Notes: a model not told the origin generated them from the sequence alone. A stretch of 64,000 nt of DNA from an uncultured Thermoplasmata archaeon (GCA_963768855.1 CAVYJM010000018.1:64001-128000); one strand, 5' to 3'. Positions 1-55,956 are shown, counted from the first letter of the stretch. Numbers and translations are program-made.

Positions 1-496
1 CGTCCGCGTTCTGGATGTCCACGGGAAGATCGATGTGGACCGGAGCGTAGCGGCCGTGGGACGCGACATGGAACGCCTCGCGGAAGACGCGGGGCACCTC
101 CTCGGGTTCTTCGATCCGCCAGTTGTGCTTCACGATGGGCATCATCAGGCCGAACGTGTCGACCTCCTGGAACGAGTCGTTCCCCATCACGGCGGTCGCG
201 ACCTGGCCCGTGATCGCGACCATGGGTGAGGAGTCCATGTAGGCCGTCGCGATGCCCGTGATCAGGTTCGTCGCGCCGGGCCCGGAGGTCGCGATGCACA
301 CGCCCGGCTTCTTCAGGATCCGCGCGTAACCGTCGGCCATGTGGGCCGCGTTCTGTTCGTGGCGGCAGAGGATGTGCCGCAGCCCCGAGGAATAGAGCTC
401 GTCGTACAGGGGGAGGACCGCGCCGCCGGGGTGGCCGAAGACCACGTCGACGCCCTGCTCCTTCAGCGTGTCCACCGCGATTCGAGCACCTCTCAT
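1..496 (-). CDS. ilvB: Acetolactate synthase large subunit, N-terminal part (runs off window start)
   Basis: My translation from ATG at 496: MRGARIAVDTLKEQGVDVVFGHPGGAVLPLYDEL...HILCRHEQNAAHMADGYAR, a typical ThDP-enzyme N-terminus; not in the ORF track because it is truncated. Confidence 0.93.
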   Translation of the reverse strand, partial: MRGARIAVDTLKEQGVDVVFGHPGGAVLPLYDELYSSGLRHILCRHEQNAAHMADGYARILKKPGVCIATSGPGATNLITGIATAYMDSSPMVAITGQVATAVMGNDSFQEVDTFGLMMPIVKHNWRIEEPEEVPRVFREAFHVASHGRYAPVHIDLPVDIQNAD

Positions 497-515
497 GAGA
501 TCCCACCAACAAAGC

Positions 516-573
516 AGGCCGCCAGGGCCTCCTCGTTTCGAGGCCCTAGCGACCCTGGGCCCGCGGCCTTTTT
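516..573 (-). promoter_or_regulatory. Structured 5' leader of ilvB (nested inverted repeats followed by a U-rich stretch)
   Basis: AGGCCGC/GCGGCCT outer stem, GGGCCTC/GAGGCCC inner stem and CCAGGG/CCCTGG alternative pairing; TATA-like TTAAATA at about 639-645. Confidence 0.45.
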
Positions 574-637
574 CGGATACACACCGGGGCACGGTGCGCC
601 GCGGGCGACTTGAGCACGACGTAGGACTTGGCGAACG

Positions 638-1624
638 CTATTTAACATTTGCCGACACCGACTCCGTCAATTGCCGAACATTCCCGACACCCGCCGAAAC
701 GGGCTCCCGCACGGGGGTGAGCCATCCGCGGTAGCGCGGGTCCTCGCCCCGGACCGCGGTGAAGAAACCCCGCTGGATCTCGAGCGTCACGGGGCCGGCA
801 TGGCCCGGACCGACCGCGTGCCAGTCCACCTCCCGCACGGGTGTGACCTCCGCGGCGGTCCCCGTGAGGAAGAGCTCGTCCGCCGCATAGAGATCCGAGC
901 GGGAGAGGGGCGCCTCCCGCACCTCGTATCCCAGGTCCGCGGCGATCCGCAGGACCGAATCACGGGTGATCCCGGGGAGGAGGTCTTCCGATCCCGGCGG
1001 CGTGACGACCGTTTCGCCTGAGACGACGAACACGTTCTCGCCGGTCCCCTCCGCGACGCGGCCCGCGTCGTTGAACAGGATCGCCTCGTCGAACCCGGCA
1101 CGCATGGCTTCCTGGAAGGCGAGGCACGCGTTGACGTAATTCCCCGCGAGCTTCGCCGCGCTCGGCACGCTGTTCGAGGGCGTCTTGAGCCACGAGACGG
1201 TCTTCACGCGGATCCCGCGGCGCATCCCCTCCTCGCCGAGGTACGCGCCCCACGGCCACACGGCGACCGCGACGTGGACCGCGTTGTCTCGCAAGGAGAA
1301 GTTCATCCCGCCCAAGCCGTAGAACGCCACGGGGCGGACGTACCCTTCCTCGAGGCCGTTGCGAGCCACGACCTCGCGGCACGCCTCGGCGAGTTCGTCG
1401 GGCCCGTAGGGCAGGTCCATGTAGAGGTACGACGCGCTCCGATAGAAGCGCGCGAGATGGTCCTCGAGGCGGAACACCGCGGGGCCGTCCGCGGTCCGGT
1501 AGCACCGCATCCCCTCGAAGAGGCCGGTGCCGTAGTGCAGCCCGTGCGACAAGACGTGGACCTTCGCCTCGTCCCAGGGCACGTAGCGCCCGTCCATCCA
1601 GATGACGTCCGTCTTCGGCGGCAT
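638..1624 (-). CDS. ilvE: Branched-chain amino acid aminotransferase
   Basis: LHYGTGLFEGMRCY, AKLAGNYVN, EGTGENVF, LLPGITRDS and FLTGTAAEVTP class IV PLP motifs. Confidence 0.96.
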   Translation of the reverse strand: MPPKTDVIWMDGRYVPWDEAKVHVLSHGLHYGTGLFEGMRCYRTADGPAVFRLEDHLARFYRSASYLYMDLPYGPDELAEACREVVARNGLEEGYVRPVAFYGLGGMNFSLRDNAVHVAVAVWPWGAYLGEEGMRRGIRVKTVSWLKTPSNSVPSAAKLAGNYVNACLAFQEAMRAGFDEAILFNDAGRVAEGTGENVFVVSGETVVTPPGSEDLLPGITRDSVLRIAADLGYEVREAPLSRSDLYAADELFLTGTAAEVTPVREVDWHAVGPGHAGPVTLEIQRGFFTAVRGEDPRYRGWLTPVREPVSAGVGNVRQLTESVSANVK

Positions 1625-1637
1625 GCGATCGTTCCGC

Positions 1638-1796
1638 TCAGGCTGTCTCGTCCAAGAGGGGCGCGAAGTAATCCATGTACTCGCGCGTGAAGGACGTCAC
1701 GACCCCTCGCGGCATCGCGTTCGGCTTCGCTCGGCTCACAGGGTCCGCCTGTTCGCGGGCCGGGTCACTCGGGAGAGTCTTCGCTCTGACCACCAT
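1638..1796 (-). CDS. Small hypothetical protein (52 aa) between the leader and ilvE
   Basis: MVVRAKTLPSDPAREQ...MDYFAPLLDETA; ends 13 nt before the ilvE start; no recognisable family. Confidence 0.35.
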   Translation of the reverse strand: MVVRAKTLPSDPAREQADPVSRAKPNAMPRGVVTSFTREYMDYFAPLLDETA

Positions 1797-1802
1797 CGAA
1801 CC

Positions 1803-1859
1803 ACAAAACCTGTGCAGGCAGCGGATCGAGGCGGTCGTGCGTCTAGCACAACCGCTTCG
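1803..1859 (-). terminator. Attenuator-like hairpins plus U tract after the leader peptide
   Basis: GCGGUUGUGC-UAGAC-GCACGACCGC stem (1855-1831) with the leader stop codon in the loop, then CCUGCACAGG-UUUUGU (1818-1803). Confidence 0.55.
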
Positions 1860-1896
1860 TAAGCACAATAACCAGGAGAATCTGGTGGTGCTGCAT
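1843..1896 (-). CDS. Putative ilv leader peptide MQHHQILLVIVLTKRLC
   Basis: ATG CAG CAC CAC CAG ATT CTC CTG GTT ATT GTG CTT ACG AAG CGG TTG TGC TAG: seven consecutive Ile/Leu/Val codons, directly after TATA-like ATAATTATA (1925-1933). Confidence 0.7.
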   Translation of the reverse strand: MQHHQILLVIVLTKRLC

Positions 1897-1960
1897 CCTG
1901 CGGGGGCGCCCAAAGCGGCGTGGGTATAATTATCTTTCGTCCAAGGCGATTTATTTCGCG

Positions 1961-2935
1961 CTACGACGTGACAATCGAAAAGTGCGGACCTCGATTCTTC
2001 ACCAAAGCCCGAATCGGGAGCGAGTTGTCAACGACCGACGTGAAGGCGTTGGCGCTCGCTCCGTCCGACGCGAACGCATCCCGCATCGCCTTGGCGGAAT
2101 GCTCAGCGGCCTGCCTCGTGCTAGCAAGGGCGAAGACCGTGGAACCGGAGCCGCTGATCGCGAACCCGGTGGCGCCCGCGTCGAGGGCGGCGCGTCTCGC
2201 ATTTTGGTACCCACGCAGAAGGGGGGATCGCGCCGGTTCGGCAAAACGATCCTCCAGGCAGCGACCTGCCAAGACGGCCTCCCCGCGCACCAGAGCGAGC
2301 GCGAGGGTCGAGGCCTTGCCCACGTTCGAGACCGCATCTTCCAGGGAGACCTGGCGGGGCAGGACCTTGCGCATGTCCGCGGTCTTCAGGACGAAGTCGG
2401 GGACGGCGATCGCGAGGTGAATCCGCGAGCTCACCGCCTCGCGTGCGAGGACGAACGGTTCCGCGGATGCGATCGTCACGAATCCGCCGAACAAGGCTCC
2501 CGCAATGTTGTCGTAGTGGCGTCCGGAAACCGCGGCCTCCCCCGCGGCCGCGCCCCGGAGGAACCCCGCGACTCCGATGCGCTTCGATTCCGAAGGAAAC
2601 GCCTCGAGGAAGGCGAGGGCGGCCGCGGCGCAGGAGGCTGCGGAGCTTCCGAGACCCCGCGCCGCCGGTATCCCCTTGCGCACCCGGACGGAGAGGTGCG
2701 TGCGGACGTGCGTGGCCTGCCGGAGGGCTTCGAGAACGATGCCCGCGGTGTTCTCGCCGAACCGCGCGGGGACGGTCCCCGCCCCGGGGCCCTCGACGGA
2801 CAGCGAATCCTCGTCCGCCTCCCGGATCGATACGGTGTCGGTCGGGCCGCGGATCGCGAGACAGAACACGTCGAATCCGGGTCCGACGTTGGCAATCGTG
2901 GCGGGGGCGCGCGCGGTCGTCCAGCCGGCAGCCAT
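1961..2935 (-). CDS. thrB: Homoserine kinase
   Basis: APATIANVGPGFDV, PAARGLGSSAAS (GHMP motif), HYDNIA and ISGSGST; start set at ATG 2935. Confidence 0.9.
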   Translation of the reverse strand: MAAGWTTARAPATIANVGPGFDVFCLAIRGPTDTVSIREADEDSLSVEGPGAGTVPARFGENTAGIVLEALRQATHVRTHLSVRVRKGIPAARGLGSSAASCAAAALAFLEAFPSESKRIGVAGFLRGAAAGEAAVSGRHYDNIAGALFGGFVTIASAEPFVLAREAVSSRIHLAIAVPDFVLKTADMRKVLPRQVSLEDAVSNVGKASTLALALVRGEAVLAGRCLEDRFAEPARSPLLRGYQNARRAALDAGATGFAISGSGSTVFALASTRQAAEHSAKAMRDAFASDGASANAFTSVVDNSLPIRALVKNRGPHFSIVTS

Positions 2936-2945
2936 GCGGGGGTCC

Positions 2946-3233
2946 TCAGCCCCCGGCAATGGCGGGGAGCAAATCAACCGTTGCGTCCCGCGGGACCGGG
3001 GTCTCGAGGCCGCCCAGGTACCGGGTGTCTTCACCGTTCACGTAGACGTTCACGAACCGCTTGAGCGCGCCGTTGCCGTCGAAGATCCGCGCGCGGAATC
3101 CGTCGCCGTACCGCTTCGCGACCTCGTCAAACAGCTGCCCCACGGTCCCCTCGAACTCGAGGCTGATCTCCCGCTCGCCGCGGGTTGCCGTCGCGATCGG
3201 GGACGCCAGCACCAACTTAACCAAGGGTTGCAC
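2946..3233 (-). CDS. MoaD/ThiS-family ubiquitin-like sulfur carrier (SAMP/CysO-like)
   Basis: 95 aa with FVNVYVNGED and C-terminal LLPAIAGG diglycine. Confidence 0.9.
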   Translation of the reverse strand: MQPLVKLVLASPIATATRGEREISLEFEGTVGQLFDEVAKRYGDGFRARIFDGNGALKRFVNVYVNGEDTRYLGGLETPVPRDATVDLLPAIAGG

Positions 3234-4458
3234 CTCCTAGGAATCGATCGACTGCCGCAGAATCGGGAGCCACAGGAGTGAGCTCGGGCAGGACGCCGTT
3301 CCACACCGCCGGCGCCTTGAGCCCGTTCCCCGTGATCAGGAGCACGACGCGCTCGCCGCGGTCGATCCGCCCGTCCTCCACCGCGCGCCTCAGGGTGGCC
3401 ACGGTAGTCCCGCCCGCGGGCTCCGCGAAGACGCCCTCCGTTCGGGCGAGGAGCCTCTGGCCCTCGAGGATCTGCTCGTCCTGCGGAGCGTCTGCGAAGC
3501 CGCGCGTGCGGCGCATGATCTGGATCGCCTCGAAGCCCGACGCGGGATCGCCGATCGCCAGGGATTCGGCGATCGTCGCGGGCCGTTTGACCGGCTGCGG
3601 GCGCCCGTCCTTCGCCTCGAAGCCGCGAACGATCGGCGCGCATCCCTCGGGCTGGGAGCCGACGATGCGGGTCTGGCCGTCGTCCACCTGGCCCAGGTCC
3701 CTCAGCTCGTGGATGGCCTTGTCCACGGCCGTCAGGAGGAGGCCGGAGCCCATGGGCACGACGACGACATCGGGCAGCTCGAAGCCGAGCTGTTCCCACG
3801 TCTCGAACAGGAGGGTCTTGGATCCCTCCGCGTAGTAGGGCCGGAGGTTGATGTTCACGAAACCCCAGCCGCGCCGGTCCGCGGCGATCAGGGCGACGCG
3901 GTTCGCGTCGTCGTACGTCCCGTCCACGGGAACGACCGTGGCGCCGTACAAGCGGGGGAGGAGGAGCTTCGTGGGCTCCAGGTGCGCGGAGGCGAACACG
4001 TAGCAGGGGAGGCGAGCCTTGGCCGCCGCGGCCGCCGTCGCGGCGGCGAGGTTCCCCGTCGACGCGCATCCGACTGCGGGCAGCCCCCACTCGCGCGCCT
4101 TCGCAATCGCAACGGCCACGGGCCGGTCCTTGAAGGAGTACGTCGGGTTCACGGTGTCATCCTTGACCCAGACCTCCCGCAGGCCCAGGGCCTCCGCCAG
4201 GTTCTCCGCGCGGCGGAGCGGCGTGTAGCCGGGCTGGAGATCGACGCGGCTCGCCTTGTCGAAGACGGGGAGGAGCTCGTGGTAGCGCCAGAGATCCTGG
4301 GATCGATGCGCGAGGGCGTCGCGGGTGAAGGCCTCCTTGACCGCCTCGATCTCGTAGCGGACCTCGAGGGGCCCGAAACACGCGTCGCAGACGACGAGCT
4401 TGGTCGGCGGATACTCGGTACCGCATTCACGACAGCGCAATCCGCGGACGTAGCCCAT
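3217..4458 (-). CDS. thrC: Threonine synthase family PLP enzyme
   Basis: N-terminal CxxC...CxxC, NPTYSFKDR (PLP lysine), ASTGNLA, VPMGSG, EPAGG and ITGNGLK. Confidence 0.9.
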   Translation of the reverse strand: MGYVRGLRCRECGTEYPPTKLVVCDACFGPLEVRYEIEAVKEAFTRDALAHRSQDLWRYHELLPVFDKASRVDLQPGYTPLRRAENLAEALGLREVWVKDDTVNPTYSFKDRPVAVAIAKAREWGLPAVGCASTGNLAAATAAAAAKARLPCYVFASAHLEPTKLLLPRLYGATVVPVDGTYDDANRVALIAADRRGWGFVNINLRPYYAEGSKTLLFETWEQLGFELPDVVVVPMGSGLLLTAVDKAIHELRDLGQVDDGQTRIVGSQPEGCAPIVRGFEAKDGRPQPVKRPATIAESLAIGDPASGFEAIQIMRRTRGFADAPQDEQILEGQRLLARTEGVFAEPAGGTTVATLRRAVEDGRIDRGERVVLLITGNGLKAPAVWNGVLPELTPVAPDSAAVDRFLGGATLG

Positions 4459-55127: not shown

Positions 55128-55956
55128 GCTCCTTCATGTGCCGCTTGACCTCCCGGCGGAGCATGAGCATGGCCTCGGAGTTCTCCCGGACCTGGAGGGC
55201 GAGCGCCTCGAGCTTGGCGTCGCGTCCGACGGGCTGCCGCCGCTCGAAGAAGGCCTCGAGCTCGTCCCACGAGAGCTTGACCGCGGGCGGACGCACCTCG
55301 ACGCGGGCGAGGGTGCCGCGTCCGTCCTCGTGGTTGTACGCCTTGAGGAGGAGACCCTCCGCGTCGAGGTAGGTCCGCGCCTCGACTCCCTCGAACCTCG
55401 CCGACGCCCCGTCCCGGAAGGCCTCGAAGGTCAGGGTGGCCTCCGCGTCCCGGTCGAAGGGGAGGCCGAGGAGGGCGAGGACGAGGTGTACCTCGGACAG
55501 GGTGAAGCCCCGCGGGGAGAGGAGCCGCAGCTCGAGGGTCGAACCGCCCACGACGACCTCCGCGGCCCCTTCGAGATGCGGCAGTGGGACCGCGGCGGTC
55601 AGCTTGTGGTCTCCGCGGTCCTTCCAGGGGCCGAGGGCCGCGAGCCGACCCGACGAGGGGAGGGAACCGGGGGAGACCGTGTCTGGGTCGGTTCCCCCGA
55701 CGATGCGCACGTTCTGCAGGAGGACGGGGCCGAGGAGCGAATCGAGGCTCGGCCGGTGAGCCTTGCGCCAATCATGAAGGAGCCGCTTCGCGTACCCCGT
55801 CGTCACATGGAGACGGGCTGCGACCTCGCCAGGTTTGCGGGCGAGCTCCGGGTGCTCGTCGAGGTAGGCGAAGACGCGAGCTCTTGCCGTGGGGGACGCG
55901 GTCGACGTTCGTTCGTCCCCCTGGTAAAGGTTCATGGAACCCTCCGCGTCGACCAT
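55045..55956 (-). CDS. HTH-containing hypothetical protein, candidate replication initiator
   Basis: RVFAYLDEHP...PGEVAARLHVTTGYAKRLL HTH; LLKAYNHE...ARVEV segment; C-terminal coiled coil. Confidence 0.6.
   Translation of the reverse strand: MVDAEGSMNLYQGDERTSTASPTARARVFAYLDEHPELARKPGEVAARLHVTTGYAKRLLHDWRKAHRPSLDSLLGPVLLQNVRIVGGTDPDTVSPGSLPSSGRLAALGPWKDRGDHKLTAAVPLPHLEGAAEVVVGGSTLELRLLSPRGFTLSEVHLVLALLGLPFDRDAEATLTFEAFRDGASARFEGVEARTYLDAEGLLLKAYNHEDGRGTLARVEVRPPAVKLSWDELEAFFERRQPVGRDAKLEALALQVRENSEAMLMLRREVKRHMKEHGSPDGSPARTGGKAGAVPRKVPEVSP

Follow-up and report, generated by a model that had tools for sequence, protein, structure and literature searches.

A candidate leader-peptide attenuator with a translational output upstream of a branched-chain amino acid operon in an uncultured Thermoplasmata archaeon

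Results

Gene content and promoter of the locus

The window analysed here is a 64,000-nucleotide stretch of DNA from an uncultured archaeon (GCA_963768855.1 CAVYJM010000018.1:64001-128000), and all of the features described below lie on its minus strand. The gene ilvE (P0001, 638-1624) encodes a branched-chain amino-acid transaminase (NF005146, 411 bits with a cut-off of 279; TIGR01122, 395 bits; Pfam Aminotran_4) and is followed by the 5' part of ilvB (1-496), which encodes the large subunit of a biosynthetic acetolactate synthase (TIGR00118, 699 bits with a cut-off of 538). Next in the operon come ilvN, ilvC, thrC, hom, and ilvD, with leuA at a greater distance. A pheT_arch equivalog is present on the same contig, and the host is an archaeon of the Thermoplasmata/Thermoplasmatota. 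The initial annotation of this region had placed a leader peptide with an attenuator-like RNA structure upstream of ilvE. This gene is indeed downstream of the leader, but it comes second (1624-638); the next gene is a 52-codon open reading frame (ORF2, 1796-1638) that stops 13 nt before the ilvE ATG.

The leader is preceded by a BRE/TATA-type archaeal promoter consisting of CGAAAG and an A/T-rich 9-mer (1925-1939). This box, which had been picked out at the outset, is near-invariant in all loci, and its end lies 28–30 nt before the ATG of the leader uORF in 10 out of 10 loci measured (28 nt in the window). Placing the transcription start by the usual archaeal distance from the TATA box, we infer a 5' untranslated region of ~4–8 nt, which would make the uORF near-leaderless. 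CGAAA is the BRE consensus in haloarchaea, where transcripts with up to 5 extra nucleotides are counted as leaderless (PMC4983044). A genome-wide A/T profile upstream of start codons, used as a test for leaderless mRNAs, gave a weak bump only.

The IlvE encoded behind this leader is an additional paralogue. A protein search recovered orthologues (69–91% identity) in 6 of 40 relatives, the others having only a paralogue of 33–42% identity that is also present in the window's genome. Outside its own clade, the leader-linked IlvE is closest to proteins labelled Rokubacteria and Actinomycetota (54–62% identity). It may have been acquired from bacteria, and with such nearest neighbours an imported leader design is conceivable. 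In two lineages (L035 and L084), most of ilvE has been lost and the leader and ORF2 are kept in front of ilvB.

Distribution of the leader

The complete leader arrangement was present in all seven upstream regions obtained from the IlvE protein search. In a search with a 22-nt pattern taken from the stop-codon hairpin, species-representative genomes contributed 9 true loci and metagenomes another 25; three genome matches, all bacterial-titled, and six metagenome matches lacked the architecture and were treated as chance. With a covariance model, 11 of the 38 genomes of one genus proved to carry the leader, always as a single copy; 41 genomes from other genera of the order and a class sample of 151 genomes gave no convincing match. 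Weak R1/R2 model matches outside the genus, in the order and class samples, proved on inspection to be chance matches in coding sequence. Distant IlvE relatives (60–63% identity) yielded three divergent versions of the leader, L094, L097, and L098. As judged by these searches, the leader family is narrow, comprising those 11 genomes of one genus together with some metagenomic relatives, and its hosts are uncultured.

A conserved uORF rich in Ile, Leu, and Val codons

The uORF (1843-1896) has 17 sense codons followed by a TAG, with its ATG at 1896-1894 and its stop at 1845-1843, and encodes Ile, Leu, or Val at codons 6–12 and 16. Both its coordinates and its peptide are as first annotated. The seven branched-chain amino acid (BCAA) codons in a row at positions 6–12 include four that end in T, a choice that had been described as atypical. 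We counted codon families in 1,295 long high-GC3 ORFs of the window's genome (66% GC) and found that ATT accounts for 8%, CTT for 5%, GTT for 4%, and GTA for 2% of their respective families. Because these codons are scarce genome-wide, the T-ending codons of the uORF are truly atypical. Rare codons make up at least 37% of uORF BCAA codons, compared with 7.7% expected from the genome as a whole.

Far from being missing in orthologous loci, the BCAA-rich uORF is intact in each of the 34 complete related loci: its ATG and TAG are both invariant, the frame between them is always open, and the whole arrangement recurs. Its length is 17 codons, or 16 in one lineage with a single 3-nt deletion. The core clade contains 19 distinct peptides, to which the three divergent relatives are added, and the N-terminal halves of the core-clade peptides are unrelated to one another in sequence. 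Ile, Leu, and Val together account for 50% of codons 2–13 in frame; the two alternative frames give 19% and 3%, and the proteome as a whole 23%. Each of the 19 core-clade peptides contains all three amino acids, with four to eight such codons per 17-codon uORF upstream of ORF2-ilvE-ilvBNC. All 19 have I, L, or V at position 10 and Leu at position 12, and at positions 9–10 the second-position U is kept under substitution while the first and third positions vary. The rare codons 12–13 are invariant and abut arm C of the RNA structure described below. The AUG is also invariant, and it remains so where the segment that it pairs with has a mismatch or a bulge.

The divergent L094, L097, and L098 have uORFs of 17–19 codons that start 27–30 nt past a TATA-like box and end with the stop codon in a hairpin loop. 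One contains seven Leu codons and another four Leu and one Val; that of L094 has three Leu and no Ile or Val, which counts against a BCAA-sensor reading. The fixed spacing from TATA to ATG, the conserved frame, and the composition argue that the uORF is translated. Taken together, we read these comparisons as strong evidence for a composition-constrained leader peptide that is probably translated, with the caveat that the last four codons and the stop double as stem, so that conservation of the C-terminal residues is confounded with that of RNA-stem positions.

Two mutually exclusive RNA folds

The leader (146 nt) folds better than all 200 of its dinucleotide shuffles (z = -3.5). Fold I is a three-way junction in which arm A (1890-1901), holding the uORF start codon, pairs with arm A' (1814-1822) to form a closing stem around two hairpins. 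Hairpin B (1862-1892) lies within the uORF, and its 3' arm consists of the BCAA codons. Hairpin C:C' (1831-1855) has 10 bp, formed by 1855-1846, the last four sense codons, with 1840-1831, and carries the stop codon in a 5-nt loop (1845-1841). This stop-codon hairpin, noted from the start, is conserved and is kept even in the divergent L094, L097, and L098. The pairing of 1822-1814 with 1901-1890 had been read as an anti-terminator; it is both present and conserved, but that role falls away, as the stem is the closing stem of fold I.

Fold II is a long hairpin (1788-1836) in which the segment 1836-1826 pairs with arm E (1799-1788). In this fold, A' forms the apex with 1809-1812, a U run (1808-1805) lies inside, and hairpin B and a 4-bp remnant of C:C' are kept. 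The two folds exclude each other, since C' can pair with either C or E, and A' is needed both for the A:A' stem and for the fold-II apex. Among 20 sequences, duplex energies range from -11.9 to -20.7 kcal/mol for A:A', from -7.3 to -15.1 kcal/mol for hairpin B, from -13.9 to -20.6 kcal/mol for C:C', and from -17.1 to -21.5 kcal/mol for C':E. When constrained, fold I and fold II differ by -0.4 to +9.9 kcal/mol, with fold II mostly favoured, and unconstrained single-sequence minimum free energy structures are split between them.

Comparison of related loci, which the initial annotation had put forward as a check, revealed compensatory changes in both folds. For fold I, counts for A:A' and C:C' come from a model-fitted alignment of 22 sequences, a fitting that leans towards structure; 93.4% of cells are paired versus 27–56% in slid controls, and compensatory changes occur in 7 of 17 pairs (four of seven in A:A' and three of ten in C:C'), as many as none of 500 shuffles reach. 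Hairpin B cannot be aligned by sequence, and it is predicted in 20 of 20 sequences despite their differences. Its native arms pair with a mean of -11.3 kcal/mol versus -7.1 kcal/mol for arms swapped between lineages, 12% of the swaps being as good. In fold II, 89.9% of cells are paired versus 24–49% in slid controls, here in an unfitted MAFFT alignment. The C':E helix is invariant within the clade, which is partly a matter of ascertainment since the pattern searches required C'; C' is also present in the seven loci found through IlvE alone. The fold-II middle helix beside C':E has compensated changes from C-G to U-A at two positions between lineages, and L097 has rebuilt C':E with an exchange of A-U for G-C, giving 13 bp that span the SD-like run and a GUG start. 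Helix conservation, covariation, and the slid, swapped, and shuffled controls argue that both folds are selected structures.

RNAalifold also proposed a long-range pairing between arm E and the Asp-Tyr-Trp codons of ORF2, which we rejected, as two lineages break it and none shows a compensatory change. Separately, the start region might pair with arm C (a '1:2' helix), but this pairing is too weak and shows no variation.

Arm E as a translation-initiation region

Arm E (1788-1799) contains the SD-like run GGUGGUC and the start of ORF2 (ATG at 1796-1794, GTG at 1793-1791). The 16S rRNA of the window's genome ends in the usual archaeal anti-SD tail, and arm E is complementary to this 3' tail over 7 nt, including one G-U pair. 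The 5' arm of fold II (1836-1826) matches the 16S tail at 8 of 10 positions, a resemblance that makes the E-pairing arm look like an anti-SD mimic. Arm E and the ORF2 start show the arrangement typical of SD and start sequestration in leader-ORF translational attenuators: they pair with C', which alternatively pairs with C.

The ORF2 frame (1638-1796) is open from E in every sequence, with a length of 51–56 amino acids and indels that are all multiples of three. ORF2 is annotated elsewhere as a 52-amino-acid gene and has homologues in close relatives only; searches of Pfam and NCBIfam gave no family match. Of the 19 variants, 15 have an ideally spaced GUG behind E, and across the window's clade the gap between ORF2 and ilvE is 1–16 nt. 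The divergent loci connect E with ilvE more directly. In L098, the GUG immediately following E is where the gene caller places the start of a 355-amino-acid IlvE; in L097, a GUG after E opens a frame that continues without a break into IlvE, and fold II covers both the SD and this GUG; in L094, the sequestered SD is followed by an ORF of 8 codons whose end overlaps the start of ilvE (AUGA). The 16S complementarity, the open ORF2 frames, and these three arrangements identify arm E as the predicted translation-initiation region feeding IlvE. In the window's clade, an N-terminal extension of IlvE appears to have become a separate conserved small ORF.

A proposed ribosome-mediated switch and its sign

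We think it quite probable that this leader is a ribosome-mediated leader-peptide attenuator with a translation-initiation output, of one sign or the other. The full statement that we prefer, a translational attenuator for which BCAA starvation is the ON condition, is more tentative, with a probability of roughly 0.4. In this scheme, transcription would begin a few nucleotides before the uORF AUG, giving a near-leaderless uORF. In fold I, A:A' would bury the uORF start and the SD-like site and ORF2 start in E would be single-stranded (ON), whereas in fold II the uORF start would be released and the anti-SD-like 3' half of C' would pair with E (OFF). The position of the ribosome on the uORF at the moment E emerges would select the fold. 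A ribosome stalled with its A site at BCAA codons 9–11 would leave arms A and C free, allowing C:C' to form and E to stay open. A ribosome at the stop codon would cover C and the first bases of C', to about nt 60, and leave the E-complementary segment, from nt 61 onward, exposed, so that C':E could form and turn off ORF2 and ilvE; this trp-like geometry assumes bacterial ribosome dimensions. Because ORF2 ends so close to ilvE and is fused to it in relatives, its translation could relay the decision to IlvE, and possibly to ilvBNC by polarity.

In favour of starvation-ON are the stop codon, whose place in the loop is invariant, BCAA codon 10, which is conserved universally, and the biosynthetic operon. 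The transcription start site, uORF translation, and ribosome stalling are predicted elements of this scheme, as is, above all, the sign of the switch. In a partition-function simulation with a ribosome mask, E was most open with A-site codons 9–11 (30–48% in single sequences at most) and with no ribosome at all, and it was fully closed from codon 13 to the stop. On average, E was unpaired at 18% without a ribosome and at 0–12% with any ribosome. Given that E is on average at least 88% paired at every ribosome position in this equilibrium model, the switch would have to be kinetic, and the equilibrium model cannot settle its sign.

The same parts could operate with the opposite sign, a reading that we consider rather unlikely. 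A lingering ribosome would then mask A, B, or C, C' would capture E, and ORF2 and IlvE would be off in BCAA starvation; with plentiful BCAAs, the uORF would be cleared before E is made, fold I would lock itself by hiding the AUG, and extra IlvE would be produced, for example for BCAA catabolism or overflow. The simulated openness of E in the absence of a ribosome points in this direction, and the conservation with covariation of all three fold-I helices fits a ribosome-free ON state. The invariant rare codons 12–13 directly precede arm C, and a stall there would mask C and favour fold II. The leader-linked IlvE is, moreover, a second, bacterial-like paralogue that in some relatives lies away from ilv genes, for example beside urocanase, so that a catabolic role with opposite logic is possible. 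On the other hand, in this genus and in L090 the leader-linked ilvE heads the biosynthetic ilvBNC cluster, and in three relatives the spacer between ilvE and ilvB is short and lacks the window's TTAAATA box. A stop codon in the C:C' loop is not required by the opposite sign, yet its position is invariant. Finally, to our knowledge, every amino-acid leader peptide characterised for a biosynthetic operon gives induction under starvation.

The U run and transcription termination

A small hairpin (1818-1809) followed by T4 (1808-1805) had been taken as a bacterial-type terminator. Both elements are present in the window, but their combination is confined to its closest relatives. The hairpin that adjoins the U run, 4 bp in the window, is the apex of the longer conserved hairpin and shrinks to 0–3 bp in most relatives; we rejected it as a conserved terminator. 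The U run itself is 3–4 nt long and reads UUU, UUCU, or CUUU in four lineages, its spacer from stem A' varies from 1 to 9 nt across lineages, and the bases after it covary with bases before A' within the fold-II middle helix. A stable GC-rich hairpin with a U tract directly after it, the mark of an intrinsic terminator, is absent from the leader. The variable hairpin, U run, and spacer and the covarying bases past the run argue that a bacterial-type terminator is not conserved. In place of such an output, the longer hairpin pairs the anti-SD-like segment with the SD-like site and start of the next ORF, so that the output looks translational and the U-rich stretch looks like part of the translation-initiation region.

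Archaeal intrinsic termination requires only oligo-U, and a U-rich stretch lies 3' of A' in all sequences, single-stranded in fold I and buried within the hairpin in fold II. One fold could accordingly promote termination at 1808-1805, either intrinsic or dependent on FttA/aCPSF1, and the other prevent it; FttA is known to prefer U-rich nascent RNA (PMC13681488). Transcription attenuation of this kind seems improbable to us in view of the short and variable run, the inconstant spacer, an abutting hairpin of 0–4 bp, and the covariation just past the run. In addition, the strongest conserved alternative pairing uses the SD-like site downstream of the U run, where it would be of no use to termination.

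A possible switch independent of uORF translation

The least probable of the readings that we set out is a two-state RNA switch in which a protein, ligand, or tRNA binds the three-way junction and the uORF is incidental or encodes a small hydrophobic peptide with its own role. The compact, covarying junction does resemble riboswitch aptamers, L094 has few BCAA codons, and the passage of PMC1262725 that deals with the S. coelicolor ilvB leader describes mutation of its candidate regulatory codons as without effect. Independence from translation sits poorly, however, with a frame, AUG, codon length, and BCAA content that are kept while nucleotides change, with an AUG that is conserved even where unpaired, and with a promoter spacing that puts this AUG at the 5' end. 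The junction loops of fold I also contain few conserved unpaired bases besides a CUUAUUA linker. No Rfam family, T-box included, matched the window at gathering thresholds, and a search of 1600-1960 at E up to 10 returned only chance-level matches (E of at least 0.16). The idea of a T-box, in which E would pair with the tRNA NCCA end, was dropped, as no T-box feature was seen. The remaining probability goes to none of these four readings.

Discussion

Leader-peptide attenuation is a textbook bacterial mechanism that needs ribosomes translating nascent RNA. Our full-text literature searches found no archaeal leader-peptide attenuator, and we know of none that has been characterised. The initial annotation had proposed such attenuation in an archaeon. 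Of this proposal, the conserved uORF and two mutually exclusive folds have stood, but not the terminator-type output. We lean towards the view that the leader is a native archaeal ribosome-mediated sensor of Ile, Leu, and Val, in which the ribosome on a near-leaderless leader peptide would choose co-transcriptionally between two structures: a three-way junction that locks itself by hiding the uORF start codon, and an anti-SD hairpin by which the next ORF is silenced.

If this is true, leader-peptide attenuation would be documented in the archaeal domain, and there would be functional evidence that archaeal translation trails transcription closely enough to steer RNA folding. The leader family offers a compact test object of ~125 nt that combines a promoter, a sensor ORF, two covarying folds, and an SD target. 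With this leader in an archaeal host or extract, both ribosome-sensed amino-acid control and kinetic coupling could be tested. The design also suggests that such a device can be built without a bacterial terminator and on a near-leaderless mRNA. For annotation, the locus is a warning that conserved ORFs of 17 and 52 codons are easily missed.

Among known systems, the enterobacterial leaders ilvL (of ilvGMEDA), ivbL (of ilvBN), and trpL share with this leader a short uORF of cognate codons, in ilvL those for Ile, Leu, and Val, that for the first two precedes a BCAA operon, which for ilvL includes ilvE. In these systems, as here, alternative helices overlap the end of the uORF, with a stop codon so positioned that a ribosome terminating there would cover the middle segment. 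Between the stop codon and the end of the last segment lie ~65 nt here and a similar distance in trpL. The leader thus has the cognate-codon uORF and exclusive helices that characterise the trpL/ilvL class, and it lacks the terminator and a match to an Rfam leader family. In contrast to the enterobacterial leaders, this one lacks a strong terminator hairpin and U tail, and its last segment is an SD and start, which would make the output translational. An archaeal promoter, a near-leaderless uORF, and an extra stem sequestering the uORF start are further differences.

Two bacterial groups with GC-rich genomes provide parallels for individual features. The leaderless polycysteine sORF attenuators of mycobacteria (Canestrari et al., 2020; bioRxiv 10.1101/834739) also use a leaderless short ORF to sense charged tRNA. 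There, however, a stalled ribosome acts directly, by blocking the RBS-sequestering strand, whereas here the switch would involve C, C', and E together with an A:A' lock, and the amino acid and the domain of life are different. Short Ile/Val/Leu-rich uORFs also precede actinobacterial ilvB operons (Seliverstov et al., 2005; PMC1262725). In those leaders the uORF overlaps a candidate terminator hairpin with poly-U (PMC1262725). In theme, they are the nearest relatives of the archaeal leader. The gene context of an actinobacterial locus in our set, L093, differs from that of the window.

With respect to output, the leader can be compared with ermC and cat and with the SD-sequestering T-boxes of actinobacterial ileS, in which the regulated gene has its SD hidden by a sequestor helix or freed by an anti-sequestor. 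As proposed here, the ermC and cat switches are set by a ribosome stalled on a leader ORF. The trigger differs, being an antibiotic or an uncharged tRNA that binds the RNA in those systems rather than hungry codons. By analogy, the sensor of the archaeal leader is designed like that of ilvL and trpL, and its predicted output is like that of the mycobacterial Cys sORFs and ermC.

ORF2 and the history of ilvE

Between the branched-chain amino acid (BCAA) leader and ilvE lies ORF2 (window 1638–1796, minus strand), which encodes a 52-residue product with a conserved C-terminal aromatic motif and for which no known family was found. Because the start of ORF2 coincides with the start site of an N-terminally extended IlvE in more distant relatives (L098:690–760 and L097:520–625, loci of divergent IlvE homologs), the comparison of sequences suggests that either the splitting of one gene or the joining of two took place in the history of ORF2 and ilvE. 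A conserved GC-rich hairpin also lies within ORF2, at the codons for Pro-Ala-Arg ... Ala-Gly.

Most of ilvE has been lost in two lineages, represented by L035:2867–3187 (the RBG_16_67_27 lineage) and L084:1780–1900. At the former locus a remnant of the IlvE C-terminus is fused to ORF2, and at the latter a short remnant ORF ends at a TTAAATA box. In both lineages, ilvB is still preceded by the leader and ORF2.

In the window, a TTAAATA box overlaps the ilvE stop codon in the ilvE–ilvB spacer (494–645, minus strand), and a structured segment of about 120 nt lies 3' of the box. Spacer comparison identified the box and a conserved GC-rich block as common to the relatives' loci L002, L003, and L084; in L004–L006 the spacer is 40–90 nt long and lacks the box. 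A 23-codon GTG/ATG frame in the window's spacer is not BCAA-rich and is not preserved in L003.

Leader architecture and gene neighborhood

A leader of different build was found at a 61%-identical ilvE–ilvBNC locus (L090:2750–3010). Its 17-codon uORF begins approximately 35 nt past a TATA-like box, contains few BCAA codons, and has a stop codon that adjoins a different hairpin. The same U-rich stretch is then followed by GGGAUUUCG and an AUG, and the ilvE start is overlapped by a short ORF.

The 28–30 nt interval between the TATA box and the uORF AUG (window 1900–1924) is GC-rich and self-complementary in most lineages, and its sequence is not conserved. If transcription starts at the predicted position, this interval would lie outside the transcript. 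Upstream of the leader (window 1961–4458, minus strand), genes for a GHMP kinase, a member of the ThiS family, and a PLP-dependent protein with a PALP domain share its strand. A canonical thrC is present in the downstream ilv cluster.

A candidate leader upstream of leuA

The same genome's leuA is also preceded by a leader (L074:7280–7480, contig C18 ~55280–55480, minus strand). At this one locus, the sequence contains a candidate 22-codon frame with a Val-Leu-Leu run. A C-rich arm containing the 3' end and stop codon of this possible frame can pair with a G-rich segment, whose alternative partner is a CCUCC-containing arm immediately 5' of the GGUGG Shine-Dalgarno (SD) sequence of leuA. Judged from sequence, this arrangement looks like a four-segment, SD-sequestering attenuator.
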